Shown in pieces: positions 17,002 to 60,755 of a DNA stretch of 64,000 bases. The translations under genes and the position numbers were made by a program. Source of the DNA: Raillietiella orientalis (lineage: Eukaryota); assembly GCA_036172245.1 (NCBI GenBank), contig JAYWIR010000002.1, forward strand, positions 3,968,001 to 4,032,000, read 5' to 3'. The notes beneath the pieces were generated by a model. That model was not told the DNA's origin, searched no databases, and saw nothing but the letters and a program-made list of their open reading frames with translations. The number at the start of each line of letters is the position of its first letter. Within the stretch, counting starts at the first letter, position 1.

Positions 17002-18558
17002 ATGCATTCCGCTGATGAAAGAGAAGTCCTTCAAAATGATTCAGTAATGGGTTGGGAGCCACATGGTTTAGTGAAGCTAAATGAATACGAATTAGAGGTA
17101 AGCTTAGCCAAAATTTTTCGAAAAGTCCGCGTTTTGAAGACGTGTTTTTCAAAATGTAAGCTGTAACCCCTTTAGTGAACTAGTCTTTTAGGTATTGCCC
17201 CCTGTATTTTAGCTTGTATCGATTGATTATGTTGTGTATGGTTTTTCATTGAATGGTGCTATTTTAAGGTACCGCACAAACGTAAACCCTCCGGAGGGAA
17301 TAGTGAACAGAGAGAAAAATGGAAAAAGGTAAACTTCACAATGTAAATGATTGGAAAATGGGTTCAAGCATTTTGGATGATTTTGTGCGAAAGCAGTCAC
17401 GTGGAATCTCTTTTAGAAAATAAAGATCAGGATTGAATTTAAGGATGAACTTACATTGGAAATTGACATAGTTGGAATCAAACCACCGATTGCCAATGCC
17501 ATCAGACGCATTCTTCTTGCAGAAGTAAGGTCTATTCAATATATTTTTTGAGGTTTTTTAGTTACCCAGCATGGCAGTTGAAAAGGTGTTTGTACAAAAT
17601 AACACATCAATCTTGCCAGATGAAGTGTTGGCACACAGACTAGGTTTAATTCCCATCAAAGCTGATCCCCGTCTATTTGAATGGAAAGGTAAAATAAAAC
17701 TTATACACAAAAGCATAATAGAAAGTAGCATTTGAGGAATTTACAGCAGAGGATACATTAAAATTTGCACTGAAAGTTAAATGTGCTCCAAAGTCAGAAA
17801 TAAGTTCTGATCCAAGCGGAAATTATGCTTGCCGCAGTACAGGTTGTTTTCAGTTGCCATTACATGTAAGAAGAACATTCATTGTTTAGTATACTCCAGA
17901 GACATTGCATGGGTGCCACTTGGCAGTCAGCAAGATATTTTTACAGCTGAACAAGTAGGACCTGTTGATGGTGACATTGTTATTGCACGTCTACAACCTG
18001 GTCAAGAAATAGATTTATATGTGCTTTGCCACAAAGGCATTGGTAAAGATCATGCAAAATTTTCTCCTGTTGGTAAGTAGTATGCTTGATTTCAATTTTT
18101 CACTGTTTGTTAGCTACTGCTTGTTATCGTTTGTTACCACAGATAACTTTGTTAGAAGAAATAAAGGGAGAACGAGCTGAAAGATTAGCAGCATCATTTT
18201 CTGAAGGAGTTATCAAATTATTTGAAAAAGATGGTATTCATTTTGTTTTTCTTTTCAAAAAAGCACTGCAGTATTTTTAGGTGAAAAAGTTGCATGTGTG
18301 GGAAACACAAGGTATGATAATTGTAGCCGCAATGTTATGAGGCATGAAGATTTGAAAGGTGCTGTACAGCTGAGTCGTGTTTCCAAATATTTTATCTGTA
18401 AGTCAAAAGATTTTGAATATATACAAAACCTGCCTGCAGTCAATATAGAGTCCACAGGAGCACTTGCCCCCGAAACTTTGCTGAAAGAGGCTATTCTGCT
18501 ATTGCAGAGAAAATGTCAGGGATTCCTTCAAGAAATGAAAACATCCAAAAAACCTTAG
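17002..18558 (+). CDS. POLR1C: RNA polymerase I/III shared subunit RPAC1 (RPC40), 9 exons
   Basis: Spliced translation contains [91 protein letters not shown] and [14 protein letters not shown]; all introns GT-AG with consistent phases; TAG ends at 18558. Confidence 0.95.
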
Positions 18559-23000: not shown

Positions 23001-23994
23001 TCGGTTCGCTGAACCCTAACCAGCACATCATCCCTCTCCAGCCCACTCTTCCTCGCAAACCACCTTCTCACCTCCTTCAAATACTGCATCGTTTCCTCCA
23101 AAGAAGTCACCTCCACTTCCGTTACGCCAACCAACTTCTTTTCCCCCTTCTCATCATCGCGAATCTCCACCTCGCACTCCTTCTTGCAATCCGATGCCAA
23201 CAAATCTTTCAGCTTCTCGTTGTACAGCTGCTCCCAGACACCGACACTCCTCCCTACCTACCAACCACCCAACCTTCTTCCTACCTCCACAAAAGAGATC
23301 TTCACACAGTACTGCCAACAGTTGGCTTTCGCGCATTCGAAGATGTCCTTCACTGCCCTGGGAATCATGCCGGCATCCTCGTCGCAAGTCTCCGAGTTCC
23401 GACGGTACTCCGTTCCCATCGTGTGCGTTTTCCCACTGCCCGTTTGACCGTACGCGAACAACGTCACGTGAAAGCCTGAAACAACCGATAAACAAACACC
23501 CCGTACTCCTTTCCCTTCCCCTCCTCGACCACCCAACTCCACGCTCTCCCAATTCACATTCCCTCTCCTTCTCATAGAAAAACGAAAGCAAACTACCAAC
23601 AGCAGCCCTCCAACTCGATCCGACTGCTTCTTCTTCTTCTTCTTCTTCCGTCCACTCAACCCCCCCACGCACGCTTTCTACCCCTTTCCTTCCTCCCTCC
23701 CTTCGCGTTGCCCTTCTTTCACGCGCTCCGGACGGACAGCCTCGACCACGCGCAACCCACCTCACCTTCAAACAGCTTCTCCAGCAGCGGAGCAACTGCA
23801 GAGCAATACACACTCTTCTGGTCGTCTTCTTCACCGAACACGTAGTCAAACTCGAACACGCGCGAAGAGTTCACCAACACCTGCGGCGCCTCGCGCACCT
23901 TCTCCAACGACCTCTGACTTCCATCGACCACTTCGCGGCCGAGGAAAGGTCGGATGCGAACGGCTACCTTCACGGGGATGCGCTCCACACCCAT
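20030..23994 (-). CDS. KIF4: Kinesin-4 (KIF4/chromokinesin-like) motor protein, copy A
   Basis: [26 protein letters not shown] (P-loop), [58 protein letters not shown], then a kinesin-4-type stalk ([12 protein letters not shown]). No WD40 tail seen. Last exons and the stop near 20030 are tentative; orthology within kinesin-4 is untested. Confidence 0.88.
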
Positions 23995-24777
23995 GTCGCG
24001 ATTCTTCACGCGTCCATTCCACTCCGACAGGGATCACGGAAAACGACTGCCAGTTCACTTCTCCTGAAAAGAACCCGCGTCCCCTCAGGGCACGCCTCGC
24101 CTCTCCAGCCCGACCACACACTCTTCCCCCTCACGCACAATCCGAATTCCTGTTCCGCGTCCCGGAAACACCCCGATCACGCAACCGGACACCCCCCCTC
24201 CCAGCCACCCCGCTTACGATCAAGCGCCTGCCGCTGCTACCACCGAACCACAAAGTCCACTCGAACGACCGTCTGCAAACGAACGAACGCCGTTCAAATC
24301 AAACAGCCCGGGCGCAAGCAGGATTGCCAGCTCGTCCTTTTTCACCGTTGCGCTCTCCGCCGCGAAGGGCCACCCGCACGAATTGGCCTTCGCGCGCTCC
24401 AAGCCTGTCGGCCACTTGCACCTTCTTCCTCTCCCACCCTCCCTCTTTCTCCCGAGCACGCACGCGACCGAAAAACAGCTCCCGTTCCCCATCCGCAAGC
24501 AGAGTCCCGAGCTTTTGCGATTACTTGGCCCCTGAATTGCCGTCCGGTCGGCGGCAGCTTTTTCTCTACCTCGCGAAGGTGAACGTCTCGCTCCCCGAGA
24601 AAGAAAGAAGCCGCTTTCGTGCTTTGCGTGTCGGCGAACCGCGCCTTGTTGAATGTTTTTTGCCGGGTTCGCGTCGTATGCGACGCCGTCGTGAACCCGA
24701 CCCATCTCTTTCCCACGGGAGCAGCCAAACCATGAAAAACCATTGGAAAGAGAAAGTTGCGTCTCTTCCTTTCCATG
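21170..24777 (-). repeat. Left arm of a long inverted duplication (partner 53119-56720)
   Basis: Reverse complement matches 53119 onward; coordinate sum is 77896 at both the breakpoint and the ATG, and 77893 after a one-GAA indel. Confidence 0.95.
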
Positions 24778-36794: not shown

Positions 36795-39700
36795 ATGCTA
36801 ACAAAATCAGTACCCAGGGAGATCATCCACTCTGGTCATTTTATGGTTTCTGACTTTGAAGCAGATGCAGAAGATGATGATGGAAATGTTGGAGTCCTTG
36901 TCTCTAGTGAAGAAGAAGATGTGAAGCAGAATACTAGCACAACAATTATGCTCTCAGATAAAACTGGAAAATGCAGTCATTCTCACTTTAGCATTGATGG
37001 ATCTTTGAGCAAGTTGTTTAGATGCATGTCCGTAGTGTACAGGTGACAGTTGTGATTTCCTTCTGTGTTACACATTGCCATGAATTTATATTGCATTTCA
37101 ATGATGGACAGCTGCAATCGTTTGCTTCCTTATTTGCAATAATAGCTCATGTAAACTATTTGTCATTACACATATAGTTTCTGCATTCATGCCTTATTTG
37201 ATTTTCATGTTTCTTTTCAAGAAGTTTCCCTTTATTAACTAGAGGTGTTATTTTGCCATTTTAAGTGTAGTTTTAAAATTGTAGTTTGTTTTACAGATAA
37301 GCTAGACATTTGCAGTTGTGTTAAGTAAATGTTTTCCATTGCAGTCAGAAACTTACATCTCCAAAGTGGAATTCTTTCAAAGGGGTAAAGTTACGATGGA
37401 AAGAAAAGATTCGACTTAATAACATCATCTGGAGAGCATGGCACATGCAATGTAAGGTGGGGTGGGTTACATTAATCTTGATAGCTCCACCATCTCAGTT
37501 ATCCTGCGACGCAGCAGCAGAGTCTGCCAGTTTGCTAATCCGGTTGACACAGATGTTCATCTTAAACCAGAGGTAGGATGTAGAATAATTTTGTGGGTTA
37601 TATAAATACTGATATTGTTAGGCAGTTGTTCTTGAAGGCAAATATTGGAAAAGGCGCTCAGGTGCAGTTATTGCTGAATATAAAAAATGGCGTATTTGTG
37701 CCAAACAAAGAATTGCTGGGTGGATACGGGCACCAATTATAGAAGAGGTGAGTTGCAAACAGGGAGACAGTTGGGAAAATCATAGCTGGTTTACAGCCTG
37801 ATGAATTTCTTGATACTCCAAACAGAGACTTTGAGCTTGCAGCATTTGCAAATGAAGACTTGTTTGCAGACTCGCTTTTCAGTTTAATTCCAGGACAACC
37901 ATTCCCCAATCCCCGTGAAATTGGTAAGTGCGACATGGTGAACAAGCACTTCTTTTTTTATCCATATGGCTTCATGGTGTGGCCTTGTGAGTAGCTGTGT
38001 ACAGTAAAGTGTGTGACCAATCGTGACCTATCATCCATGAGCAGCTTCCCCCTTTGTTTGCAAACAAGTCCACTCGTTACTCCTTCGCCCATTTTGAAAC
38101 CACTGTAAAAATCGTGTATTTTGGAATCGTACTTCTGTAAGCATGCCATTTCCGAGGTTTCGGAAAACTTAACAAAACGTATTGATAGTACCGGTTTTGC
38201 GGATCCTGCATGTCGCGACTGAAAGACGTGTGCACATGTACGTACATTTACGAAGAAAGTAACCCAAGTTGGAGAGTGCTAATGGCAACAATCGCCCGAC
38301 ATAGTGCCTGTGCACCGTACCTGACGTAACACACCAACCACCTGTGTCCCTCCTGTTCCGCATAAATACGAGGCCGAAGTATACGTAGTACAACTACGTA
38401 GTACAGGTACCCCACCTGTACCACGTACTTGTTCGTCCACCATAACCGCGACACGACAACGGCATTCTTACGTTGTGGCAAGAATTGTGGGAACGCCCTG
38501 AGGCGCCCCCTTTCTCGAGAAACTTGAAAGGTTAAAACCGTAAAGTACGAGGCCGTGGGTGCACCATTGGGGTATTGAATTTCTGCTCGGTTATGGGTGC
38601 ATTGAGCGTCTCCCGAGTGTTTTCCAAGTATCCGTTTGATTTTTGCGTCGGGGAACCACTTGGAGACCCGGAGGCTGAATTCTCCTGTTTGCACCATTAG
38701 TGCTTTACGTATCTTGTCGATTACGAACGTGCCTGAGCAACTTTCGTTTTTCTAAATCTGAATTTATCTGGAAGGCATTCTGCCATCTATGAATGTGTTG
38801 CACAATCAATGGTGAACCAACGGTTGGCACAGTCCAGGGTGTGCATATATTGATGGTTTTTGAAACACGAAGTGAACGTCTGCTAAGGAGAATTTTATAC
38901 GTAGCTTGCACACAATTCTCCTATAAAAGAAAATTCTGGTGTTTTTCATGAACAGCCGATGATCTCGTTCTTGAAAATACTTGAGCTGATTCATTTCGTA
39001 GAAGGAACTGTAGCAACTGTTAGGTACTTGGTGTTCGCGAACGATCGAGGAAATGTTATTCCAGGATTGTTAATTTTTCAGCCATGAGCTGCTTCGGGAT
39101 GTTGGGCGGTAACGGCAACACTTCTGCGTGGCACATGGTGTTTGTTATTCTGCGTGTTTAGTCTGTTGGACTTGGGCTGAGTGGTTTTCGTATCGCAGAG
39201 AGAATGTTTTTCCTGCAGGCTGCTTCGCCCTGTTTTCTTCTTTCTGTCGCCTTTCCTGCGCCATAAATGCTGTGAATGTAAACGTATGCGTGCATACGCT
39301 TGCCGTTTACACATGTGAGGAATTGCACTTTGTTTCTTGTTTTGTTTTGTTTTTTGATTTTTTTTTTGCTCAGGAGGCCCTGTTAAGCAAATTGAGCAAT
39401 TTATTTAGTGAATTGCTCAGATTTTTTCTTTCTTTTCCTCTCTCTCCTTCTCCTCCTCCTCTCATCAGTTATACACTAACCTGCACACGAACGTGCTCCC
39501 ACTGGCTTTTTTTTTTTTTTTTTGTTAAGCGACCATTTTTAGGCTTCACTTTTTTGTGCGCGCTTTGGGTTTTCGATGGTTTCTGCATTTTTCATGCAAA
39601 ATGTCGAGCGTCATCGGCTTTCGCTCTCCCTCTTTTGAAGGACTATTTGAAAAATTATTGTATTGGTGATCTCCTGTATTTCTATTCGTTCAGAGGTTTG

Positions 39701-42700
39701 TTATACGCAAAAAGGGAGATTAATGCACCTTCGATGAAAGGTGCATTATAATGAAGAGCATGAAGCACTTTCTGTGGCTGAGAAGAATTTTTTTTTCCAT
39801 TTTACACGCTTGGGGTGAAGGAGGTTCTATAAATAGCAAATGCGTTGAAACTTTGAGAAAATTGATCCCCCCCCCCTCCAGGTGTTGGAAAATTGCATTC
39901 AGTGTTTTTATGGAAAACGCTGTTCGGGAGAAAAATTTCTACATCGCAGACTTTTTTTTATTTGTTCGGAGAAATGGATTTCAAATCGGGGATCCACCTT
40001 TTTGAAATTAATAATCGACATGCTGAGAAGAATCACCTGGCACTCTTGATTAGCGAGGAAATTCTCTCTTCAATATGGTACTCTCTGTACAAGTTGCATG
40101 ATGCCGTGTTTGGGATTCAAGGAACGTAATAGGTGGAGAATGTTATTTGCTTCGTGTCGTTATTCGGTGGTTTAGAATAAATTCATTCATCCTATAGATA
40201 ACTCTTAGGACCCTTCTCTTTCCTCCCAACCTCCCCCCTTGCAAACACAGGAACGATCGGAATCTCGAATCTCACCCATTTCTCTGATAAACGTGTGTAT
40301 TGTACTACCGCTAAATTAGAGGATTGCATTTCCCATGCAATCTTCTAAATTACCCCTGCGCAAGTACAATGCATCGGTCCCTGCAGTCGGTGAACTCGGA
40401 AGATTGATGATGTGATGGCATGAGAGAAGGACACAGAGTAAAACATAGGATGTTATCTTTTGTGAAGCGGTTTTTCCGCAAACTGGTGAACGTTTCATTC
40501 AGAATCTGGGGAAGAACCAACTCGGAGCACGTTAACGCACGCAGACCTCGTTTTGAAAACATGGGGTGGGAGGTCGCAGCTTGAGGGCCTCGTGTTTTGT
40601 GTACGGCATCCTGGGTTCGGGGAAGCTGAACTTTCGTGTTTCCCTTCAGGAAGAGAGGGCTTGAGATCGTGACAGGGCAGGAATGAGCACTCCTGCCCTG
40701 CGTGCTGTACTAGCAGTTCCGGCTAAGCTCTTGAAGTCTCGACCGCTGTAAGGTAGACCGAAGTGCCGTGGGCCGATACTTTGTACTTCTCGATCCTCCT
40801 CAGTGTACTTGGAAGTTATCGAGCAAGAGTTGCGAACACGGAAGATTGCAGATAGTGTTTATCTAGGTTTCTGCGAAGCCGGGCTGCCCTTCCGCGGAAG
40901 CCGCACGGCAGAATCAAAGCCGTGGATGTCAAACCGTCGCAGTTGGTCCACGGCATGGATGCGGGGTTTGCCATTGTTGTGGGAAGAGGCTGCGTGCGCT
41001 TGGCGCCGAAAGCATCAAAGCACACGTAGCTGCAGCAGGCTCATCTCGGAAGCATATGTGTCCGAAGCACACGGAAAAAAGTGTGCGTTATTTTTTTTTT
41101 TGATTTACCGCCTGCCCACTCAAAGCTCGAGTACGAACCTAACGTGCGTCTGCCTTTTTTTTCCTTCTTCTTCTTTCTCCCACCATCTTCTCTCCCTCTT
41201 TTTTTCGTCAGTAAACCAGTTCAGGAACGATGTTTTGTGTGTTTGTGTTTGTGTCTGTACCTTTTTTTGTACGCAAGAATGCGCATGGAAAGCCGGGCTC
41301 ATCCGAGAAGCGCAGACTCTGCTTTTCGTTAGGTTCCTTGAAAGCTTCCGTTCCGAGGGCTTCCCTTATCCATGGCCCGCATGGTGTTTCCCATCTAACC
41401 AGAAGTCCTTCGCGACGTAACATCGCTCCTTCCGCATGGACTCCTCTTCCGTCTCCCGTTTCCATATTCATCACTTTTCTGTGTGCGCGACTGTAAATTC
41501 TCCTGCTCGCTTCTTTCCAGAAACCGAGTAGACGCCAGCTGTTCTTGTGCGTGAGCAGGTGTGCGAGAAGTCACGCACTTTTTTTTTTTTTTCTTTTTTT
41601 CTGAATTCCTTAAAGTAGAGTGGAACGAAGAGTTCCTTCATGAGGCAAAGGTTAGACCAGAAAAGTGACCCACGCATTTTAGGGGGGGAGGGGGGGACTT
41701 CCCTTTCCGTTGGAAAGAGCGAAACGTTCTTTCGATGGGGTTTTCTTTTTTTTTTTTTTTTCCAACCACAGTCCGTAGTATTCGACCTTTGGTCTGGGAC
41801 GCGGAAAAAGCGTCAGGAAGGCGAATGCGGTCGTGCAATGGAAGCGCTGGACAAGGCTTGCGGGAAAGGACAACAACAAACCCTTCGGCGGAGAACTTCA
41901 GGCAGCTGCTGCGAGGAAACGGGGCGGAAAAAGTGACTGCCGCCTGCACCCTGCTGGCTAGCAGTGCTCTTCGAAATCACGAGATGGAAGAGTTAGGAGG
42001 AAGGGACGGCTGTTTGACAAGAGGCAGCTGGAGTCGGAAGCCGCATTTTCGGACGCTGCCAAAGATATTCGGCTCGCGCAAGAATTTACACATTCGTCGA
42101 TGGTCCAGAACGTAGGTCTAGGTGGGATTCGCCGCTTTTGGATTGTAGGAGCAAGTGAATGGGAACAAGAATGTCTGTCACCGGGGACCGATATAGCAGA
42201 GTGGGGACTTAATTGCACGTCGGCGTTGTCAGCGTACATTAGGACTGGAAACGGGTTTGCAGGCGGAGGCTGTCTTAAGAAAGGATCGCTGCTCCATCCT
42301 ACGTCCATTCAGACTGATCTCTTCAGATGAATGTGTGCGTTTGCTGTGTGGTGCTTCGAGGCTGGAGCCGAGCTAACCTCCCGGTAGCTTCTGGTTTTTT
42401 TGTAAACGGGAATCCCGTTTCCTCGGTGTGAAGGGGAAGTAGGAGTGGGTGCGAGCAAGCAGCCAGCGAGAGACGTCGAGTGAGAAGATCGAGATGATCT
42501 CCAGACCGAGATCCGACTCCAGACCCGAGATTGCTGCTCTGGAGAGGTCGTGGTGCCTTGGAAGGTCGCCTGTAGTTTGCTTCGGCTTGTTGTGCGTGTC
42601 CTTGTCAGCCATGCAAACCGAAAAGCCTTCTCCTTTCTTGCCGACTATCGTCAGAACGATCGACGTTAACTGCCGAATCTGCCTCATCTCACCTGCTTAT

Positions 42701-45700
42701 ATCTCTGGAGTCTCACTATGGAGGGAGCATAACGCCCTCCTTCCGCAGTGGAAGGAGGGCGTTATGCTCCTCCACAGTGATACTCCTCAGTTGCGTGGCA
42801 ACGCAGATGTCGTGGTACCATTTCTCTTGTTCAGCATAGGGAAGTTCAAGAGATGCGCTCCCCTCTATTGTGCCCATTCCCTCACTGCTTTTTCCGTGCG
42901 AAGAAGTCATCAGGGAATCTTTGAGCGGTTAGTGGTTGGCACTCGTGAAAAATGAACAAAGCGCGGAGAATTTCGCGGTTTTGAGATGTAACTTCTGCCT
43001 CTGCCTCCCCCTCTCCCCACTTAAAAAAAGAGGAAAGAGTGCTCAACTTATTAGGCGTAGTAGGGTGTAAGGAGAGGCACTGTTGTCTTCCGGAATGGAG
43101 CCGGCCTGCAGATGTGCACGGGGAAGTCTCTCTTTCCAGCACGCGGTTCTACGCACATCTTTTCTGCCGCACGCTGTAGAGGCCGCTCACACCTTAGGGT
43201 AATGCTTGGATCCTTTCGTTTTCCTTCCTGAGTGTGTATCGGAGGATTTCTCGCTTGGGCTTTCGATGGCAGCGAACGACAGGAAACACTTTTTCCTTCT
43301 CGCGCCATCGTCAGTGCCCCAATTCGGGAACGACAGGGAAGGGGGTAAAACTTTCGTGTCGTCATTGATGCAGCAGCAGGAGGGGCTGGTGGTGGTGGGG
43401 ATGGATTTGCTCCTCTTTTGTGTCTCTGCTCGCCTTTCTATCCTGGCTTCTGTGCGTGTTCGGTAGGTGTAGAGGTGTCGTAAATGTTTGGAAGAGCAGA
43501 GTGAAGAGGGAAATCCGACCTGTCGTCTGAGGGGAGCCGGCGAGATCGCGTGACGTCTGATGCGGTCCGATGGGATCACGTGTTGGAGGCGGCCCGGAAG
43601 TTGTGTGTCTGCAAGAGACGAGAGGAATGCAGACGCGCACACGTGCGCATGCTGGCTCTGTTTCCTTTTTACCTGGGTGCCACGTGGTTTCTCCAGCCTT
43701 TTTGCGCGCGCGTGTCGCTGCAGATGACCAGGGTCTACCTCTGTTATGGCTGTCTGCTGGAGCACGCACCGGCGTGCGCATCCCTCTCCCCCCCCGTCCG
43801 CCTCTCAGAATCTGTGCACCTTTCAACATCCACACACGCCCTACGTCATTTCCTTGCGCTCCTGCGGTGTGACTTCTCGCCATCAGACCTCGGAGAGATT
43901 CCTCGAGGTCCGCTCGAACTCGGGAATGATTTCGTTACCCTTTTTTTTGCCACCAGGCCCGTCCCTTGCCCTTGGACTTTCCGGATTCCTCGGAGGATGA
44001 TGGTCCTCATGAAGCAATGGCGAGTGATTGTTGCCTTCCGGTTGACATTGTTGTTTGCGCGGTCCCTTTTCCTGCGATTACCTCACTGCGTTCGGAAGGG
44101 GAGGGGGGGCACAACTTTATCTCGGTCCGCTTATCTTTCTTCCTAGACCGAAGCTTATCTGGGGGATGCGGCCCACTGATTGATGTCTTTTCCCTTCGCA
44201 TGTGTGTAGAGTGTCCTTCTTTCTTGCCCCCTATGTGTTCCCTCCGTCCGATCAAACACCGACTGGCTCCCCCCCCCCCTCCCTCCTTACTTTTGCTCTT
44301 TTTGCATTCACACCGTAACGTTGCGTGCTTGGAAGACACGTGACTGTCTCTGCGCGCGCGCGCTCTTGGCTGCTCCGTTGCACGGCGGCGGCGTTGCTGC
44401 GTCCGCGGCAGGCGTCGCCCCCCCCCCTCCCCCTTCAGTGAGCAAAGATACCTCACTTCCTCGTCTGCCCCGAAGTGGAGTTCGACGAGACGGGGGGGAG
44501 AAGGGTCGGCTCTCTCCCATGGTTCCAACGACGTCCGCAGATGGCAACTCATGCCTCTCAGCACGCCGCGCGGCGGCACGGCCACGGACCTCTGCGCCGT
44601 CCGACGTTCCCCGTGCCAGCCGGGCACGCGACGGGAACCACGTGCGCTGCTTTTTCTTTCCGTGCCGCCGCTTTCTCCCGCACGCATCAGCAGCCTCCCT
44701 GGTCGTACGTGATAGCGAAGTTCTTCCGGAGGTTTGGGGCGGAAGCAGGGACAGTTCCGTGTAGCCTTTCCTCCCTCCCCCCCCCCCTTCCTTTTTTTTC
44801 CCTTCTCCTTTTCTTAATGCCCAAGGAGATGATTCTCGCGAGGCCACCAACGCACGTTGCTTTGCTCCTTGCTGTTTTGCGCTATCTCTTTTGGAGGAGT
44901 GCTGCACGGTCGGACGCCATGGAAATACAGCTTCTCACGAGGGCTTGCACCACGAGGATCCATGTGCGCTTCTCGCCGGATGGATCTCTGGGAAGATTTC
45001 CCGCACCCTTTCCTTCCCTTCTGCGGACTATCCATCAGTTATGTCAATCCGCGCTTTTCGGAGCATCCCCGAAAAGCGGTCTGAAGTTTCAATTCATCCA
45101 CGATGCTCCTGAGTTACCTGGGGAGGGGGATTCCGGATAGCCGGGAACGCGTGGCGCGCACTCTCCCGGTGGATTTTCACTGGTGCAAAGGCGCTGAAAA
45201 GCGGGAACTCCGCTTTTCAGGAGGGGATCATCGCCAGCGCAGCGGCGATGATCCCCTCCTTCCCTCGTTATGCGCGGCGGCTCTTGAGCGCGTCTCCAGA
45301 CGCCCTACAGCTTCCCGCAACGCAGGAGGCGGCTTCCCATCCCCGACCGAGAGGAGAGACACGGGGAAGCTTCGGGGAGCGGGAAGCCAAGGAAGAGTGT
45401 TCCTCGTCTGGCCCGGAGATATCGGCTGGGAGGTTCGTTCACCCGCCCGCCCGTTTGCGCCGGGAGGATCCACAGAAGGAATGCTGTTGCAGGAGAGAGC
45501 AAGCATCCTTCGCTCTCGTGGGTAGAGAGGTAGACAGATTGGATTTCACCTTCCGCTCTGCGGTGGGGGGGGGGGGGGGGGAGCACGTAACGAGATGCTT
45601 TCACGTCTTTTCTTCTTCCGCGGAAGAACCTTCCTTCCTCCCTCTGCAAGCAGTGGTTCCACTTACCATGGCGCCAGCGATTCGGTCGCATTCGCGCGCC

Positions 45701-48700
45701 AGGACGTGAAACTTCCACGGGCACGTGCCAATCGGGAGGAGATCGTACTTGAGGCTGGGGCTCTTTGCGGGCTCCGTTCCCCGACTTTTGCTGCGAGCGA
45801 CATCCGGCTTCTCTTTTTTATGGCGTTCGGGGAGCGCCAGCGGCGTGGTAGTAGGAAAGAAGGGTTTGGCGCCTCGGCGTCGTATAGCGTCGGCGTCGGC
45901 GGAGGCAGGGCGAAGTGCGAACGATATGCGTTCGCGTGTCGCTTGTGACGAAACCGTGCTACGCTTTCCGTGCCTCTTTCCGTGTCGCAGACGTCAAGCG
46001 CACATAAGGGTTTCACGGTTCTTCTGGTGCCGTTGGCGTGCGCCCTTCGCCTTTCCGGTTTCGCGATCGTTTCTTTTTGCAAAGGAACGCGGGGAGACGC
46101 TTGCGGAGAACGCGACCGGATTTGTGCTTGTAGTGACCACGTGTTGGTAAGGTGTGCCGGAAGGAGCAGTTGTGCGGATCGGTCCAATCCGGGCATGTCT
46201 CTCTCCGTCTCTCTTCCTGTTCGCAGTTCCGTTGCTTTGCGAGGAGTTGGGAGCGACCAGCAGCAGCAGCCCTCTCCCCATGCCGCAACAGCCCACGAGT
46301 GCGAAGGACATGCAAGAAAAAAAAGTGCTGGAACTCATGTGTGTCCTTCGCAGGGTTCCGTCTGGTACTCTTCTGTTTAGGATTCGCATTTGTTAAGGCT
46401 CCCTCCTGATTTCTTATCGTGCCCCGTTTTCATAATTCAAATCACCCGCATCAGCTATGTGGTCTGCATGCAGAGATGCTTCATCTGTAGATGAAGCACA
46501 GAATGATAGAAATTCATACTGGAGTCGGTTACCTCCCCCCTTCAACCCCCCCCCCCTCCTCCCCTTTCTCCTCTACACACACAGACTTTCGAAACGAGTT
46601 CTGGAAAATCCGTTGCACATTAAATAGGATCGACTTCGAAGCATTTCTTGTAACCTAGCTACCCGAAAGTATTAATTCCGTGAAGCGTTTGAACGTTGTC
46701 TGTAGCCCATGCCAGCCGTAATAATTATTGGGCTCATTTTTGCACCAAACGTAACTGCTAACCCTCCAAATTCCTTTGTTTCTTCCTCTACGAAGTGTAT
46801 CTGCCAGCACATGGTCTCGTTTTGTTTCCTTCGATCTTCGAACATTCCAGTGGATTGAGTGCCGCTTCGGTGAATAGCAGAAAAAATTTGAAGTTTTTAT
46901 TTCTATATTGGCTGATTTTTCCGAGTTTCACGAAACTTAATGTGTGCGACATTTGGTACGAGACGGAAGACCACAGCTACTTCACTGCCCTCGCCCCGGA
47001 GTGGTCCGGTTCTCTTTGGGGCATCGCGTACTCGCCTTTTTGCCAGCGGCAGAATGTTGTCTCCGGATTTACCGGAACATCCGATGGCTTTCTTAACGAT
47101 GGGACATTCGAGTGGGCATCCCGTGTTCTTGTGCCCCGAACGTCTCGAAATCCGGCTTTGCCATTTCCAATCCGGTAGATCCTCCAGAGTTTTTGTTTAA
47201 GAATGTTCATTTTTCTAGATCGCTAACCCCCCGTGGTGCAGTGATCCCATTCGTACACAATACAGCGGAGTGGAATTTTAAATACATTCTTTACGGTTTA
47301 TTTGCCGAACATAGCTCTCATTTATTTGCTGTTTTTAATTTTCACTTGCTTTCGCCCATTACTGTACTTAACGAACGATCTAAATCACAGTTCATCTTGA
47401 AGGTTTTATAAGTTTCTTCATGTACCTTACGTGGGCAGTAGTAACTCGAGCTCATTAGGCTAAAGGAAAATTAACATACTGGGTAATTATCATTTCCAGG
47501 TGACATTCACTGCCTGCCCCTACTGTTGGTCAGTTTCGGTCGTGAAGTTCTTCTCGGCCAATTCAGCAGCACAAAACACTTTACAGCTTACAACACAGCA
47601 GCTTTTTAAAACCATTAGGGAACTAGTTTGCGTTTTATGTTCCGATACTTTCTGGATAGTAAGAGTTGAATCCAAGAAAACGTTTTTTTTTCTTCCTTTT
47701 CTTTCCATTTTTTTTTTTTTTTTGTTTGTTTGTCATTATGTAGTTTGAAAAATGTTTGTATCATTTGCTTCACTGCATCTTAATGAGCCTAACATTTATT
47801 CGAAGGTGGGATGTGAATGTGCAACGCAAGGAGCGTATAAGCATAAATCGAGTCAAACTATGCATTTATGATGGGTTATACGAAATAAAGTAGTTCCAAA
47901 ATCATAACCGCGGTGAAACAGAGATTAAATTACGATCTTATGTAAAATTACAAGGAATAAACCTGATTTCTATTTGTATGAGATTGAGAAAACGATAAGC
48001 GTGCTTGGAGGCAATGTGTGGCATGACTCTTTTGAACACAATAAAAGAATGGGACTAAATTTTCAACTTAAAGGAGAGTATACAATTAGCTTTCTAAGAC
48101 CGCAGTGAATCTTTCAGTTCTGTTAATTCATAATTTTCTAGCCAGAAATGCCAGCCTTGCAGATTTCATGCAGCCAGGATTGGTGCAGCTCCAACCTTCC
48201 CTGGATGATGTCATGGACATGGACCATTTGCATGGTCAGTGAATTGTACTTGATATTTTAATTAATAATGTGGAATTCCGTACTTTTCTTTAGAATTACT
48301 GGGATCTAAATTACCAACTGTAGTCGAAGAGGATAGTATTTGTCCTGATTTTGTAGACAGCAAGTTGGATGTGCCTTCACAAATGGATCCCAGTGTTGAC
48401 CCAAAGCTGATGCTGGGAACATATGAACTGTTTGGGGAGCTGCACAAAGCTCGGTGCATGCGAAAGCCACATTCGGAACCCAATATACGACTCAGGTCAC
48501 CTGTCTGGGATGATGATGACCAATTTGTCCCAGGATCAGAGGATCATGGTGGAACTACATTTCAGTCAGAGAAAGCTCTCTCACAACTGGGAGGGCATGG
48601 CCAGCAGCACAAGCAGGAATGCGTGCTGCAACAGCGCCGGCATTCCTCTGTTCCCACAGCTGTGTTCTCTCTTTTGCCTGAAAGTGTCTCCGAGGAATTG

Positions 48701-50039
48701 CTCAGGCGGGGGACCAGCTTTGAGGATTTGCCACTGAGCCACATGGAGTCAGGCACAGTGTGTAGCTGACTTTCTGCTCGGAAAGTGTAGTGGATGGACC
48801 TCTTCCTCCAGGACAAAGCCCGCATGCGCTCCTGGAGCACATCATCCACTTATCCCAGCACTCGGGACTCAGGGAAGACACTCAACTCCAAGTTGGGGTC
48901 GTCCACCACTAGTCTTCCATCTCACAATCTGTTAGGTCCAGGCAAGTTTTTTCTAGAGAAATCGCAGTAAACGTGTAGCACAGGAAGCAATTGGCAGCAA
49001 CATGTGATATTTAACATGGGTTCTCCAGAGAAGGAAGAACATCTTTTGGATGAAAGTCAGGTGGAGGCAGAAATTCCTACAAGATTCCAAATTAACAGTT
49101 TTTCTTTCTTTCTTTCTTTCTTTTTTTTTTTTTTGTTTGCTTTTTTGAAGGAGAATGTTTGGGCAAATAATATGTATCCTGGATGTAGCTCTCAGGGCAC
49201 CATCAAAAGAGTAACTGAGCAGTGCTGGCAAGACAAGAGTCAATCCAAGAGCAAACCTACTGGTATCAGAGCGCAACCAGTACAAGAGCACCGCCGTGTA
49301 AGCCATATCAATGCAGAGCAAAAGCGCCGTTGTCATATCCGATACGGATTTGATGTCTTGCACGAGCTTGTCCCTGCCTTCAGGGACAACCCTAATACCA
49401 AGGTGCTGGAGAAGGAAATACTAGTGATCTTAATTCTTTTGTATTCAGGTGTCCAAGGCTGCTATGCTTCAAAAGAGTGCAGAGTTTATTCAGCAGCTGC
49501 AGGCTGAGCGCCAAGTTTACCAAGAAGAAGCCAAACAGTTGCGCCAGCAAATTGATAGTTTACATCAAGATATCTGGTTTGTTGAGTATAGCAACTCATG
49601 TGTTGCAATATAGCAACTCATGTGTTGCAGTTCCTGCCAAGCAAGGCTTCCTGCTAGTGGAGTACCTGTGTCTAGAAGTTGCTCAAGCAGTCATCTGCGT
49701 GATATGTATACTTGTTATATCCAGCAACGGACATCTAGGGATTGGAAGTTCTGGATTGTATCCTTTGCAAGTGTTCATGATATTTCCTGAACCCAAGTAC
49801 AGTTCAGTCAGTTGATGCAATGCTTACTGGAAACATTCGATCAGTGTGTATCCACAGCATCTCGGGAAGAGCTTCGCCATTCAACATTAGCTTGGGCTGA
49901 GCAACATTGCTCCCTACTGAGATTGCGGCCTGCAGTACTGCAGGCTCTGAGAAGCATCAGTAAAACTACAACTATTCTGAGCAATCCTTCCTTGCTCCCA
50001 GAGGAAGTGCATGCCGCCCTTAATCAGCAGCCCTCCTGA
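36795..50039 (+). CDS. MLXIP: Mondo family bHLH-ZIP transcription factor (MondoA/ChREBP, mml-1-like)
   Basis: Mondo conserved regions: IIHSGHFMVS, IDGSLSKLFRCMSVVY-SQKLTSPKWNSFKG..LRWKEKIRLNNIIWRAWHMQ, VLEGKYWKRR....AEYKKWR, FPNPREI-ARNASLADFMQPGLVQLQP; bHLH RRVSHINAEQKRRCHIRYGFDVL...KVSKAAMLQK; C-terminal WKFWI-FSQLM..LLETF...W.EQHCSL..LRP. Start could be 36771. Largest intron 37924-48141. Confidence 0.95.
38600..39070 (-). mobile_element. Degenerate RTE-like non-LTR retrotransposon 3' fragment inside the Mondo intron
   Basis: RRSLRVSK (~RRxLxIS), RKLLRHVRNRQD (~RKLxWxGHVxR) and RVSKWFPDAKIKRILGK (~VxxWxPxxxKRxxGRP) in order across frameshifts. Confidence 0.55.
42707..42786. other. 80-nt near-perfect hairpin (pre-miRNA-sized) in the Mondo intron
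   Basis: ggagtctcactatggagggagcataacgccctccttcc-gcagt-ggaaggagggcgttatgctcctccacagtgatactcc; inner 21 bp perfectly paired. Confidence 0.85.
49758..49802 (+). other. U12-type (minor spliceosome) GT-AG intron, 45 nt
   Basis: Donor GTATCCTTT, branch-like TTTCCTGAAC (49783-49792) ending 10 nt before the intron end, no polypyrimidine tract; removal joins WKFWI to FSQLM in frame. Confidence 0.85.
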
Positions 50040-50053
50040 ATGCTATACTATCA

Positions 50054-51262
50054 TTATTGGAATAGTTTTTGAAGCTTGTTGCGTTGTTGGGCATCATGCT
50101 GCTTTTGCTGTATCAGCAGGGTGTCAAGTTCCACCTTCACAGCTGCCTTCAAACTTGGTTGCAAAGCTGCTGCTGCTTCTAAATCTTCCTGGGCTGCCTT
50201 GGGGTTCCATGCACCAACATGTGCTTTTCCACGGCGGAACAATGCCTTAACATTTTCTACAGCACATGCAGGGCAGCTTGGCAACTAGCACAACTTACTG
50301 GGCTCATGCTGCAGTACTTCTGAGCAGCAATGGATTGTAGCATAGAAATCCCCCCTAAATAGGCAACATTGTGCATAGTTGAGCAGAAGGGGCAGCCGCT
50401 GATTATTCAAATCCTGCCACTCTTGACTGCCAGGCTTTTCTTCCAGCATCAGTTGATCCAAATGGCCAATTGCTTCTGAGTATTTTTGGGCTGCTTCCTG
50501 GTACTGATGTTGGGCAAACAGGGCATTGCCTTGCTGATGGAGTACAGGCACAGATTCGAGTTTTTCCTGAGAATTCATGCACCAGGACTCTTTCTCAAAC
50601 TCTCCAGGAAGCTCTACTTTGAGAATCTCTGCAGAAAATAATTGCTATTAAAACCACATAAGCTTACCAAATGTGAATACAAGATCTTCTGGCTTCTGTA
50701 ACAAAGCATCTAAGTCCTGATAGCCTGTAGGCTGGAAATGTCTATTGCTGCAGCAAGATTTTAATGGTTCATTTTGTCCCCCAGTTACTTTCTGCCCAAA
50801 GTAGTTATTCCTCAGCATGCTTACCGTGGATGGATACAACAGGACAAGCTGTAAAACATCAAGTAAATCAACTCCATAATCACTCCATACTTTTTTGTCC
50901 ACATCAAATCTTGCTATTTCACCTTCTGCCATGCTTTGCAAGCATCTTTCCCATACTTCTAATTGGAATTCCTTGCCTGTTATCAGCTCCATTGGCTTTC
51001 CTGCTTTTCTGCTGTCATCCAAGATTTCCTGCTGTTTTGCAGTTTTGAAATGGAATGTCAGCTAAAGTTAACAGTGTATAATTTCTACATCATAGAGACT
51101 AACTGTGCATTTATACTTGCCCTCAGACCCACTACTCAGTATGACATACTTATAGGTCATAATCACCTTTGTTCCAGGTGGATACCCATTGGGGAAATGG
51201 CGATGGCCAGGTGACAATACAGTTTTTCTTACTTGATTTTCATCCATGGTTAATGTTTTCAT
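50054..51262 (-). CDS. AIP: AH receptor-interacting protein (FKBP-like domain + TPR), 5 exons
   Basis: VRKTVLSPG...PGTK-LTFHFKT...LDDSRK.GKPMELITGKEFQLEVWERCLQSM..GEIARF, GYQDLDALLQKPEDLVFTF-EILKVELPGEFEKESW, LPLLLNYAQC, NVKALFRRGKAHVGAWNP; canonical short introns. Confidence 0.95.
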
Positions 51263-53118: not shown

Positions 53119-56100
53119 CATGGAAAGGAAAAGACGCAACTTTCTCTTTCCAATGGTTTTTCATGGTTTGGCTGCTCCCGTGGGAAAGAGATGGGTCGGG
53201 TTCACGACGGCGTCGCATACGACGCGAACCCGGCAAAAAACATTCAACAAGGCGCGGTTCGCCGACACGCAAAGCACGAAAGCGGCTTCTTTCTTTCTCG
53301 GGGAGCGAGACGTTCACCTTCGCGAGGTAGAGAAAAAGCTGCCGCCGACCGGACGGCAATTCAGGGGCCAAGTAATCGCAAAAGCTCGGGACTCTGCTTG
53401 CGGATGGGGAACGGGAGCTGTTTTTCGGTCGCGTGCGTGCTCGGGAGAAAGAGGGAGGGTGGGAGAGGAAGAAGGTGCAAGTGGCCGACAGGCTTGGAGC
53501 GCGCGAAGGCCAATTCGTGCGGGTGGCCCTTCGCGGCGGAGAGCGCAACGGTGAAAAAGGACGAGCTGGCAATCCTGCTTGCGCCCGGGCTGTTTGATTT
53601 GAACGGCGTTCGTTCGTTTGCAGACGGTCGTTCGAGTGGACTTTGTGGTTCGGTGGTAGCAGCGGCAGGCGCTTGATCGTAAGCGGGGTGGCTGGGAGGG
53701 GGGGTGTCCGGTTGCGTGATCGGGGTGTTTCCGGGACGCGGAACAGGAATTCGGATTGTGCGTGAGGGGGAAGAGTGTGTGGTCGGGCTGGAGAGGCGAG
53801 GCGTGCCCTGAGGGGACGCGGGTTCTTTTCAGGAGAAGTGAACTGGCAGTCGTTTTCCGTGATCCCTGTCGGAGTGGAATGGACGCGTGAAGAATCGCGA
53901 CATGGGTGTGGAGCGCATCCCCGTGAAGGTAGCCGTTCGCATCCGACCTTTCCTCGGCCGCGAAGTGGTCGATGGAAGTCAGAGGTCGTTGGAGAAGGTG
54001 CGCGAGGCGCCGCAGGTGTTGGTGAACTCTTCGCGCGTGTTCGAGTTTGACTACGTGTTCGGTGAAGAAGACGACCAGAAGAGTGTGTATTGCTCTGCAG
54101 TTGCTCCGCTGCTGGAGAAGCTGTTTGAAGGTGAGGTGGGTTGCGCGTGGTCGAGGCTGTCCGTCCGGAGCGCGTGAAAGAAGGGCAACGCGAAGGGAGG
54201 GAGGAAGGAAAGGGGTAGAAAGCGTGCGTGGGGGGGTTGAGTGGACGGAAGAAGAAGAAGAAGAAGCAGTCGGATCGAGTTGGAGGGCTGCTGTTGGTAG
54301 TTTGCTTTCGTTTTTCTATGAGAAGGAGAGGGAATGTGAATTGGGAGAGCGTGGAGTTGGGTGGTCGAGGAGGGGAAGGGAAAGGAGTACGGGGTGTTTG
54401 TTTATCGGTTGTTTCAGGCTTTCACGTGACGTTGTTCGCGTACGGTCAAACGGGCAGTGGGAAAACGCACACGATGGGAACGGAGTACCGTCGGAACTCG
54501 GAGACTTGCGACGAGGATGCCGGCATGATTCCCAGGGCAGTGAAGGACATCTTCGAATGCGCGAAAGCCAACTGTTGGCAGTACTGTGTGAAGATCTCTT
54601 TTGTGGAGGTAGGAAGAAGGTTGGGTGGTTGGTAGGTAGGGAGGAGTGTCGGTGTCTGGGAGCAGCTGTACAACGAGAAGCTGAAAGATTTGTTGGCATC
54701 GGATTGCAAGAAGGAGTGCGAGGTGGAGATTCGCGATGATGAGAAGGGGGAAAAGAAGTTGGTTGGCGTAACGGAAGTGGAGGTGACTTCTTTGGAGGAA
54801 ACGATGCAGTATTTGAAGGAGGTGAGAAGGTGGTTTGCGAGGAAGAGTGGGCTGGAGAGGGATGATGTGCTGGTTAGGGTTCAGCGAACCGAGCAACAGG
54901 TTCTACTGCCATGAACAACGTTTCTAGCCGTAGCCATGCCATTTTTTGCATTACTTTGAAGATCCTTTCTTCTGCGTTGCAGTGAGTAAGGCGATGCTGT
55001 TTAGCTTTCTGAAGGTTCCGTCCCTTGAAGGCATGATGCTACAGTTGCCAAGTTGCAGGTGGTGGATTTGGCAGGGTCAGAGAGAGTGGGTAAGACGAAG
55101 ACGGTCGGAGAACGTTTCAACGAAGGCGTGTTCATCAACAAAAGCCTTCTTGCATTGGGCAACGTGATATCAGCACTAGCAGAAGGCACCAGTACGTTCA
55201 TCTCGTACCGTGATAGCAAGCTGACACGACTGCTGCAGGGTAAGCATATTGGGGCAGTGGAGTGCAGTAGGAGATGGCTTGGTAGATTCTCTGGGTGGGA
55301 ACGCCTTTACTCTGATGATTGCCTGTGTGAGCAGCACAGACACAAACATTGATGAGAGTCTGAATACGCTGAGATATGCCAGTCGAGCTCTGAAGATTTG
55401 CAACCAGCCTGTGATAAATCAGGAAGGCAGTGTAGAGGAAGTAAAGCAGCTTGTGAAGAAGGCAAGTCGGAAGTGGGTTTTTGGGTTAGTGGACACTGCT
55501 TTGTTCCTTCAGAACAGGGAACTTGTGGCTGAGCTGGAACGGTGCCATAAATTGCTGCAGCGTGGTGCTTGTTTAGAACAGGGGAAGGGTGACCAGGCCA
55601 AGAAGGGTGGAGGTTCTTCTGGAGAGGCAGGAGGAGGACAGTTGTTTGGGAATGCTGGCGTGAGTCCATCCACCAAATGCATGGGATGGGAATGGGGAAA
55701 TGGGATTTGCAAATCAGGCAAGGGTGCTTTACGGAAAACTCAGAGATTTGTTTGTGCACATGAAATCTTGTGCCAACCTGCTGCGGTCACAGCATTTGGA
55801 GTGCACTGATTCTCACCCTGCTGCTTCCAGCTTGGTGGAGTGTGCTGCAGAAATGGAGGCAAGCAATGGGGCGCCAAGGTATGGGTGTGTGAGCCTTGAA
55901 GTTTTGCTTTGCAGGCACTGCATCAGGAGTACCTGTGCAACTTTGGCTGTGTGAAATGGGATCAGGATGCTGTTGCAGTGGAGTGTTTGGATGATGATGA
56001 GAAGGAAAACGCAGATGTGATGGTGGATTGTGCACATTCCAATGATGATGATTTGGAGAAAGGCAATGATGTGGAGGAGGAGGATGAGGATGGGAGCATG

Positions 56101-56720
56101 AAGGACTGTGATTACAATGAACCTGGGAATGTTGAGCTGAGTGCTAAACTAGAGGTGAGATGGTAGCAGCATGTTTCAGTTTCCTTCTGCCTGTGTAGAA
56201 CTTGGATCAGGAGCTTGCAATGAAGGAAGATCTTTTCCGAAGTTACGAAGTAGATGCGAAGAACATAGGAGCATGTGATCCTGAGCATGTGCGTGAGTTG
56301 GAGGCCAAGGTGATAGCTCTGGAGACTCAATTGTTTCAAGTGCAGTCTGTAGTGAAGTAAGTTGATTTTTTGTTGTGTCTGTTTGTGTGTGTATGCCTGT
56401 GTAGAAATAGTGGGAGCCGATTGGTGAGAGAGCTGAAGAAGGAAATCAAGAGTTTGCAGGAGGAGATCCGTAAAAAGCAAAAGTTGCAAGTGGAACGTGA
56501 GAAGCTACAGCAGAAGGTGAAGATGTTGCATCAAGAGATTATGGTTAGTGACTATATGGCTGGATGTTGTCTTATGAATTGTGTAGTCTTTGAAGCAGGA
56601 TCGTGTGAAACTAATCCGCAACATTAATGCAGCCAACAACAAGTATCGAATGTTGAATCTGGAAAAAGATAGAGAGATCTTGCATTGGAAGAGATTGCAT
56701 CGCCGTGATGAAGTGCAACT
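53119..56720 (+). repeat. Right arm of the long inverted duplication (partner 21170-24777)
   Basis: Near-identical reverse complement of the left arm; paired ORFs in the track are identical at the 5' end. Confidence 0.95.
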
Positions 56721-57837
56721 TGCGAGAACAGAATTACTTCACAAGAGGCGTGAATTGTATAGCAAAAGAAAATTGGAAATGACAGCATCTGCTAACAAAC
56801 GGCTTCGGAAAGATTTGGAAGTTTTGGTGAAGGGTCCTAATTTGCAGAAGAAGTCGTCGATTTCTCGTTTATATGAGAATATTAATATTCTTCTGAAGTA
56901 TAAGCGTGCACAAGCTGGTTTGAAGGTTAGGTTTGCTCAGCGGTCACAGTTGAAGAGTTTGCTTTTGGGTGAGCATGACAGTATGACTTGTAGTTCCTTG
57001 AAAAAGGAACTGGATAACTGCAATGCCCGAATTTCTGAAGTACAGAGTGTCATGATTCCTATTGATTATGGTAGGGCTTGGCTAGAAAGGGTGTGATTTA
57101 TTCTCTTTGCAGTCAAGGTGTTACAATCAGTGGAAGCTGTGTTTGCTTGCAAGGACTCAAGATCTTTTGCTGTTGAATGCATCATTGATTTCTTGTTTAG
57201 CTATGACCAGAAATTGCTTGAAAAAGATGAAGCAATACGTTCTCTGTGTGTAAGTGAAAAAACGACAGTTTACTTCATGTTGTTAACCACTTTTAGCACA
57301 AGCTAAATATGAGTGTTGTTGAGAAGGATCAGATCACAAATCAAGATGAAGTACTTGAAAATTCTGGTGTAGGTCTAATGGTGGGTATTCTGATTTAGTG
57401 TGTTTTGAACTGAAATTTATTTTTTATCTTATTTTAATGTTTATGTTGTTCATAAACTGTTGATTCAAGTACTCAACATCATCATTGTGCCTAAACTAAT
57501 CCATTTTTTGTGCGTTTTATTATTTATTACGAAATTTGATTGTTTCACGAATTCTGAATGAATGTTATGCATCCATTTCTTCCAGTATGAGACAGTGGGT
57601 GAAGCAGAATCCAGAAACTTGCTGGAGCAAGGGCATTCTTTAGTGCAATTCACTCCACTGTAAGGCAGCTGGTGTTATGTATTTTAATTTGCTCGTTTTG
57701 TGTTTCTTTTCAGTAGTGAAAGATTTAGTACCAGTGATAATGACAGCACTATCATTCTAAATAGTATGGGAATCTGTTTGCCAAAGTACAGTACACCAAC
57801 ACGTGTGCATTTTCCTCATGACTTTCTGAGTACATGA
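53902..57837 (+). CDS. KIF4: Kinesin-4 (KIF4/chromokinesin-like) motor protein, copy B
   Basis: Same motor motifs as copy A; a TTTTCAG acceptor ending at 53832 precedes the ATG; exons can be phased to a TGA ending at 57837 (last exons tentative). Confidence 0.88.
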
Positions 57838-59318: not shown

Positions 59319-60755
59319 TCATTTGGACTTGAGAATTACTTTTTGTGTATCTATTTGAAACAGTCGACTTTGTGACAGTTGTTTGCGCAACAGTTGTTGC
59401 AATTTGTACCCTCCCATATTTTGCAGTCCTTTTTTCCTAAAGGCTTTACTGACTCTCTTGCATATGATCTTCCAACTAAGTTCATTCAAAGGTGCTACAT
59501 CCAAAATGCCTTTTACAAAACTTTCAACCTCAACATCGGAGAGTCCACTTTTTTCTAGACTACTCTGAACATCCATCTTTTGTTCATCTTCTGCTGAGTC
59601 TCTCTTTTGTGAAACTTCAACTTTATCAGAAATTTTGACTGCAGCTAACCCACTGCTAGCTTGAGTTTTCTTTCTTCGTTTCTTCTTCAATTGAACATTG
59701 GTAACATCATCTTCAGGTTCGTCTGCATCTAGTTTCATTTTTTTGTCTTTAGGCACAAGAATACTTTTGGCATTGGAATCTGGCAAACTTCTCAAATGAC
59801 TCTTGGTAATGTTCAAGTCATCTGACTGGTCCATTCCTATATTTTCTGGATCAGTTGCTTCCTGGACTTTTCGTTTTCTATTCCGTTTCTTCTTAGATTT
59901 CGACACTGATTGCAGGTTACTTTCTGCATTATTATTCTGTAGTTGTATTTCATCTTCCTTTTCAGATTCTTTTTTAAACACAGAAGGTTTCTGATTCACT
60001 GGTAATCCATTCTGTTTAGGTTCCTTGGTTGTACTAATCTCTGAATCAATGGGTTTGGTGCCTTTCGGTTTTTTACTTTTCAATTTCCCTTTCTGTTTGG
60101 GTGTAGGATCTTGACTCAAAGATACATCTAACCCACTGTCCATGCTCACATCTAACTGTTTGTTGTTCTCCTTTATAGATTCATCCTTTGAAGTCTCAGC
60201 AGGTTTTCTTTCTTTTTTCTCCTCAGAGGCAGCAGCCGATGGTGTTATGGCAGATTTAAACAAATTCCATGCCTCTTGAATGCACTGCTGACTTATTCCT
60301 TTTATGGAATTTTTTATAAAATTCTGAAAATCTCTGTAATCTACATTCCAGCCATCTCACCATGAATTTTTTTTCTTTTCTGGGAATGTTATTGAACCTT
60401 AGAAGCTTTTCTAAAGTCTCCTTTAGTTCACCATCAGGTTGCTTCTTCACAGTATCTCTTATCTGCTGCATCCACAGTTGTTGTTTGATTTCTCCCTTGT
60501 TTGCAGATGGTGATGCTTGAAACTTCTTACCAGAGTACTTCTGGTCCTCAGAAATGCATGCAACATGTTGACGAAATTCATCTCCACTGAAAGCATGTTG
60601 TAAAAATTTGATGCAAGCATGCTTCAACATTACCTGAAGTCTTTGTTACAATCCATGCATGACAGTACCTGGGATGACTTACATTGTCTACGGTGCTTAT
60701 CAACCTGGTTTTTTTTACAACTATCTCCACATCCGGAACAAGTAAAGACAACCAT
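59319..60755 (-). CDS. LYAR: Cell growth-regulating nucleolar protein LYAR, 3 exons
   Basis: MVVFTCSGCGDSCKKNQVDKH...C.....LSCMDCNKDF-SGDEFRQHVACISEDQKYSG (C2HC zinc fingers), KGEIKQQLW, NIPRKEKKFM-NFIKNS, Lys-rich tail. Confidence 0.95.

Follow-up and report, generated by a model that had tools for sequence, protein, structure and literature searches.

A 45-nt intron with U12-type signals in a Mondo gene, probably a miniaturised descendant of an ancient minor intron

The Mondo gene in the stretch of DNA analysed here (64,000 nt, referred to as the window) is interrupted between its last two coding exons by a phase-0 GT-AG intron of 45 nt (49758-49802, plus strand; GTATCCTTTGCAAGTGTTCATGATATTTCCTGAACCCAAGTACAG). 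The donor, the branch motif, the spacing between branch site and AG and a position held in common with orthologues are all those of a U12-type GT-AG intron. We consider it probable that this is the orthologous U12-type intron of the Mondo family, miniaturised along with the other introns of the genome and removed by a conventional minor spliceosome; we infer both that the organism possesses a minor spliceosome and that this machinery cuts the intron. The intron is thus of a known kind, a shrunken version of an ancient, catalogued minor intron and not a case of novel splicing.

The Mondo gene and the signals of its last intron

The gene was delineated with the ChREBP protein of the fly Condylostylus longicornis (reference P0003), the sole match of a protein search with the last exon. 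The features of the gene and of the intron are the following:

36816-50040, plus strand: bHLH-Zip gene of the Mondo (MLXIP/MLXIPL-like) type, given here from its first exon with homology through the stop codon
49631-49757, plus strand: penultimate coding exon of Mondo, ending ...RTSRDWKFWI, aligned to residues 921-956 of P0003
49758-49766, plus strand: 5' splice site GTATCCTTT; the exon before it ends in ATT, with T at -1
49783-49792, plus strand: branch-site-like motif TTTCCTGAAC
49803-50040, plus strand: last coding exon of Mondo, FSQLMQ...NQQPS followed by TGA, identified by homology to fly ChREBP

When the window was searched by tblastn with P0003, the N-terminal Mondo regions matched at 36816-37928, another segment at 48138-48212, the bHLH region at 49289-49423 and the C-terminal domain as far as 50021. 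These matches are colinear and on the plus strand, and a Pfam HLH match covers 49235-49402. With N-terminal conserved regions, a bHLH-Zip and the C-terminal WKFW...VSTAS domain in a single colinear gene, this is, judged by its sequence, a member of the Mondo/MLXIP family. One of its introns is about 10 kb long (about 37929-48137). The intron before the penultimate exon (49577-49630, 54 nt) contains a direct duplication of about 22 nt, in which ATAGCAACTCATGTGTTGCA occurs twice; its 3' splice region is therefore doubled, the first copy ending in AA, not AG.

Removal of the 45 nt joins ...RTSRDWKFWI to FSQLMQCLLETFDQCVSTAS... (FSQLMQ...). In this spliced frame 78 downstream codons are open, the C-terminal exon is 54% identical to P0003, and P0003 residue 960 is matched by the fourth residue of the downstream exon, which places the junction between residues 956 and 957 with no gap. 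If the intron is retained, the frame continues into WKFWIVSFASVHDIS (VSFASVHDIS) and then meets an in-frame TGA (open reading frame 49614-49790). The 45 nt must be removed for the conserved Mondo C-terminus to be made, as retention would end translation within 15 codons.

The branch consensus of U12-type introns is TTCCTTRAY, the distance from branch A to 3' splice site is short and fixed at about 10-15 nt, and a pyrimidine tract is not needed; consensus and distance both agree with the 18 orthologous Mondo introns described below. The donor GTATCCTTT matches RTATCCTT at all eight positions from +1 to +8 and also carries T at +9. Its complementarity to U1 is confined to GTA, and the upstream Ile codon cannot have a final G. 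The core of the branch motif, TTCCTGAAC, agrees with the branch consensus TTCCTTAAC at eight of nine positions, a G replacing a strongly preferred T, and donor and branch motif together keep to the consensus at 17 of 18 positions. As branch A, 49790 and 49791 are both candidates, lying 12 and 11 nt before the last intron base and 32-33 nt from the 5' splice site. There is little pyrimidine tract, the share of pyrimidines at -15 to -4 being 0.42, the lowest among 11 introns of the POLR1C, Mondo and AIP-like genes. Moyer et al. (2020) describe an excess of U at -1 in GT-AG introns of the U12 type, with which the T seen here agrees. On the sequence, the initial annotation described the site accurately, as a 45-nt intron with this donor, a branch-like motif, a WKFWI-FS junction and no pyrimidine tract.

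An inverted repeat of 3.66 kb (21114-24777 and 53119-56779, 97.5% identical), both arms of which hold the motor domain exons, the 5' part, of a kinesin-like gene, flanks about 28 kb with Mondo and its AIP-like neighbour. Either a genuine inverted duplication or an error of assembly could account for it. The G+C content is 58-69% at 1-14000 and about 54-60% at 42000-46500, the latter lying within the 10-kb Mondo intron, and 33-52% in the rest of the window. Both G+C-rich blocks have long open frames in all six frames, and the open frames 10230-11141 and 11264-12289 on the plus strand resemble a G+C-rich coiled-coil protein with a poly-Q run. Two further genes were recognised:

17399-18546, plus strand: POLR1C (RPAC1)-like gene with introns of 37-47 nt
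59322-60645, minus strand: LYAR-type zinc-finger gene with a lysine-rich exon of 345 codons

RNA contigs and the opposite strand

RNA data were available from one public run, X1, as metatranscriptome contigs, with a share of 0.11 of the sampled words, and four of its contigs could be aligned to the window. The contig over an intron of the AIP-like gene has nine mismatches on one side, so X1 holds a relative and not the organism of the window. None of the four contigs crosses the junction between 49757 and 49803, the parts left uncovered being uninformative. One contig of 163 nt does reach into the intron: it covers 49647-49785 and then 49827-49850, retaining the first 28-29 nt of the 45. The 41 nt missing from it are bounded by CT and AC on the plus strand, which corresponds to GT and AG on the minus strand; the joint is out of frame as a Mondo mRNA, and on the minus strand the gap is an intron of local size. 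The features of the minus strand are:

49787-49827, minus strand: candidate antisense intron of 41 nt, GT-AG, GTAAGC...GGGTTCAG, from one X1 contig
50057-51247, minus strand: AIP-like gene (FKBP-type PPIase and TPR), from tblastn with P0004, P0006, P0007 and P0008 and the Pfam model PPIase_AIP

The contig bears on a further reading of the locus, in which the 45 nt are kept in the main product, the gene then encoding a truncated protein ending in WKFWIVSFASVHDIS or being a decaying locus. This is the sole RNA contig over the site, and it does contain the first 28-29 nt of the intron; its joint, however, is out of frame for Mondo and intron-like only on the minus strand, and the 78 codons downstream have stayed open, at 54% identity to fly ChREBP, in exactly the frame that splicing restores. 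We therefore regard retention as very unlikely.

With 24 letters on its short side, this one contig of a relative weakly suggests the 41-nt antisense intron. The final 16 nt of the sense intron also belong to the candidate antisense intron, whose acceptor, GTTCAG/GAA, is the reverse complement of TTCCTGAAC, the deviant G of the sense motif providing the C of the antisense CAG. The sense branch motif may thus have been shaped in part by the opposite strand, through this antisense CAG acceptor. The overlap, if real, is a small curiosity, in that splice signals would be common to two strands.

The minus-strand AIP-like gene has its end near 50057, and the sole AATAAA of that strand within 50056-49000 lies at 49485-49490. 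The 163-nt contig could accordingly come from a spliced 3' UTR of this gene, or else from an antisense RNA in its own right. Mondo and the AIP-like gene stand tail to tail, their stop codons about 15 nt apart, and the nearest poly(A) signals lie deep in the partner gene in each case, ATTAAA at 50647 on the plus strand and the AATAAA just mentioned on the minus strand. Given such distant signals, long overlapping 3' UTRs of the two genes are likely.

The intron position in other animals

Olthof et al. 2019 (PMC6717393), whose tables underlie the Minor Intron Database, include both MLXIP and MLXIPL among the minor-intron genes of human and of mouse. The initial annotation had placed a U12 intron in the C-terminal region of MLX/MLXIP genes; this is right for MLXIP, and extends to MLXIPL, but MLX has no occurrence in the supplementary tables of that paper (Olthof et al. 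2019, PMC6717393). The 12-mers catalogued there are ATT followed by GTATCTTTG for MLXIP and GTG followed by GTATCCTTA or GTATCCTCC for MLXIPL. The human introns (chr12:122138939-122140953, 2015 nt, and chr7:73594404-73595636, 1233 nt) lie near the 3' ends of their genes, and the mouse introns of MLXIP and MLXIPL measure 1987 and 740 nt (PMC6717393). As exonic triplets, ATT encodes Ile and GTG encodes Val, compatible with WKFW-I and WKFW-V. The human MLXIP and MLXIPL proteins would read WKFW-I/V at this place, and the vertebrate introns probably lie between WKFW[IV] and FS. A literature search for MLXIP together with a minor intron in the main text found no such paper.

Metagenome contigs were scanned for WKFW[IV] codons followed directly by GTATCYTT, which gave 84 loci (L001-L084), 70 of them distinct over -60 to +120. 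As the scan demanded GTATCYTT, it shows that many animals have this donor at this place and does not measure how frequent major-type donors are there. An open Mondo-like frame (...Y-V-R-x-R-T-L-x-NWKFWI) precedes the donor in 80 of the 84 loci, 72 of which were recognised by a regular expression and 8 as plainly alike; the other four (L002, L011, L015 and L030) have stop codons and were set aside as chance matches. The 60 distinct donors of these orthologues have GTATCCTTT as their most frequent 9-mer (21) and ATT as the triplet that most often precedes the donor (38). The exon that follows, F[S/G]..., was found within at most 600 nt in 18 of the 84 loci, at intron lengths of 86-501 nt; in the remaining 66 it was not found in the up to 600 nt of contig available. 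At each of the 18 visible 3' ends a branch motif of the U12 type stands 10-13 nt ahead of the AG, in the forms TTCCTTAAC, ATCCTTAAC, ATCCTTGAC, TTCCTTAAT, TCTTAAC and ATCCTCAAC.

The catalogued MLXIP and MLXIPL 12-mers have a single match among the loci, L043, which belongs to an invertebrate-like group and so gives no direct tie to the vertebrate intron. A search of metagenome contigs for close relatives, with the last Mondo exon as query, produced 595 pattern matches with none confirmed.

The form ATCCTCAAC is that of the orthologous locus L078, which varies at the same position of the branch motif as TTCCTGAAC. For the minor intron of human BAZ1B, supplementary file 1 of Olthof et al. 2019 (PMC6717393) gives a branch motif (TTTTCCTGAACT) with the same 9-mer, TTCCTGAAC. 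Because of this identity and of the variation in L078, the deviation seen here falls within the accepted range of minor introns. That the C-terminal region of Mondo holds an intron of U12-type appearance, as initially annotated, is supported by the signals of the intron itself, by the MLXIP/MLXIPL catalogue and by 80 of the 84 metagenome loci, in which the codon boundary and the GTATCYTT donor are the same.

These comparisons bear on how far the motifs could be fortuitous, the intron being an ordinary major-type one and its U12-like motifs a matter of chance or a by-product of an antisense splice site. The donor 8-mer alone is not enriched, RTATCCTT occurring four times in the 64-kb window with 3.26 expected, and the branch-like motif falls on the putative acceptor of the antisense intron. 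At the three other occurrences (30366 and 36222 on the minus strand, 52437 on the plus strand), neither a branch motif nor an exon context was found. On neither strand of the window does a donor other than the one at 49758 come with a branch motif of at most one mismatch and an AG or AC 9-15 nt beyond it; 0.09 such combinations are expected per random 64 kb (both strands), and the one seen here coincides with a codon boundary that homology sets independently. Chance would moreover have to put the donor on the exact boundary that 80 other Mondo-like loci use, as do the introns catalogued for MLXIP and MLXIPL, and we give such an origin of the motifs hardly any credence.

Intron size at the locus and the minor spliceosome

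Ten neighbouring introns were placed by homology and by eye. Those of POLR1C measure 37, 41, 47 and 42 nt, two of Mondo measure 46 and 54 nt and those of the AIP-like gene 105, 42, 39 and 42 nt. Nine of the ten thus fall between 37 and 54 nt, so that 45 nt is an ordinary size at this locus, despite the Mondo intron of about 10 kb. The donors of the ten are GTAAGG, GTAAGT (three times), GTAAGC, GTATTC, GTATGG, GTGCTG, GTTTGT and GTGATT, none of them U12-like, and the annotation of all other donors as U2-like holds for these ten. The four introns of the AIP-like gene (50257-51166, minus strand) each have a length divisible by three, so that tblastn translates across them; in-frame stops are present in two, and one, 50849-50890, is open.

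The organism had been called an apparent nematode. No nematode name appeared among the matches of three word-limited protein searches: the Mondo exon gave one match, the fly at 54% identity; the AIP exon gave six, led by a spider at 56%, with ants and a beetle behind it; and the POLR1C exon gave 102, the best being teleosts at 66%, followed by insects, a tunicate and a mollusc. A HMMER search with the AIP exon had a top identity of 56% among the 150 matches listed. Nematode 3' splice sites are of the UUUUCAG type; the acceptors of the introns placed here are varied (TTTTTAG, TGTTAG, CTGCAG, ATTCAG, TTACAG) and do not have this character. The nematode call is unsupported by these comparisons, a weak test given the word limit of the searches, and the organism is an animal to which nothing in the libraries searched is closely related. 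Its identity matters here, nematodes being among the lineages reported to have lost minor splicing.

The size of the introns and the looseness of the local donors are relevant to a further explanation, according to which the intron is a fossil of the U12 type that is now cut by the major spliceosome, the minor system having been lost or being lost in the lineage; the ancestral signals would persist either since the loss is recent or since the major spliceosome accepts very weak donors. Such losses have occurred in nematodes, myxozoans, oikopleurids and tardigrades, fast-evolving lineages with small-intron genomes (Larue et al. 2023, PMC10639083), and for minor introns of phase 0 a preference for conversion has been proposed (Moyer et al. 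2020). Among major-type donors as loose as GTGCTG, GTTTGT, GTATTC and GTGATT, GTATCC might be tolerated, and the branch motif does have one non-consensus base. Against this stand the 17 intact consensus positions, the preserved branch-to-AG spacing and the T at -1, as well as a pairing with U1 that is limited to GTA next to an Ile codon that excludes a final G. Within the intron there is no shift toward a major-type donor or a pyrimidine tract. We consider this fossil reading, the main competitor of our preferred one, improbable, and with 17 of 18 positions intact we likewise do not favour the earlier suggestion of an intron partway through U12-to-U2 conversion.

In our preferred reading, an ancient minor intron of the Mondo family, located in phase 0 between WKFW[I/V] and F[S/G], would have shrunk to 45 nt in a small-intron animal genome. 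Its removal would start with the pairing of the U11/U12 di-snRNP with GTATCCTTT and TTCCTGAAC; the A at 49790 or 49791 would then attack the 5' splice site, and the AG at 49801-49802, 11-12 nt downstream, would be used while the nearer AG at 49796-49797 is skipped. An Rfam scan of the 64-kb window (gathering score; E <= 1) found no minor snRNAs and only chance-level matches to microRNAs and snoRNAs.

Read in this manner, the locus suggests that an ancient minor intron can shrink to the size of the smallest major introns with the signals of its class kept. This would fit the reported scaling of length, the median lengths of minor and major introns being correlated across species with a rho of 0.903 (Larue, Elias and Roy 2023, PMC10639083). 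The 45-nt Mondo intron would also offer an animal substrate for studying the minimal spacing of the U11/U12 di-snRNP. A literature search on the shortest U12-type introns brought up nothing specific to animals among the matches listed; the supplementary tables of Larue may hold a figure. It is a tentative and rather doubtful extension that a working minor spliceosome acts on this 45-nt intron among introns of about 40 nt while the intron is interlocked with a 41-nt major-type antisense intron. If it were true, this would be one of the shortest minor introns of animals, and the same DNA would serve as a U12 branch site on the plus strand and as a 3' splice site on the minus strand; should the host lineage be thought to be without minor splicing, the picture of that lineage would need revision.

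The intron resembles those of vertebrate MLXIP and MLXIPL in gene family, in its C-terminal location near the 3' end of the gene, in the GTATCYTT donor and in a branch site of the TCCTTRAC type, and it has the upstream triplet ATT in common with MLXIP; it differs from them in length, 45 nt as compared with 740-2015 nt. With the Mondo introns of the metagenome loci it shares the boundary between WKFW[I/V] and F[S/G], the GTATCYTT donor and, for the 18 loci with a visible 3' end, a branch-to-AG distance of 10-13 nt, while the 86-501 nt of those 18 introns leave it at about half the length of the shortest. For the length itself, the closest likeness is found in Blastocystis sp. subtype 1, which has the shortest minor introns of the data set of Larue, Elias and Roy (mean slightly below 42 bp, median 39 bp; PMC10639083) and in which, as here, U12-type introns of about 40 nt occur where all introns are tiny. 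The four minor snRNAs and the seven specific proteins were all found in Blastocystis (Gentekaki et al. 2017, PMC5608401), that is, a standard minor spliceosome. Blastocystis differs in being a stramenopile, whose minor introns are 77% AT-AC and probably recent gains (Larue et al. 2023, PMC10639083), whereas the intron of the window is GT-AG, ancient and in an animal. The precedent nevertheless indicates that a standard minor spliceosome can process introns of such a size: the modified, compact minor spliceosome considered in the initial annotation is not needed, and a length of 45 nt does not by itself call for new machinery.
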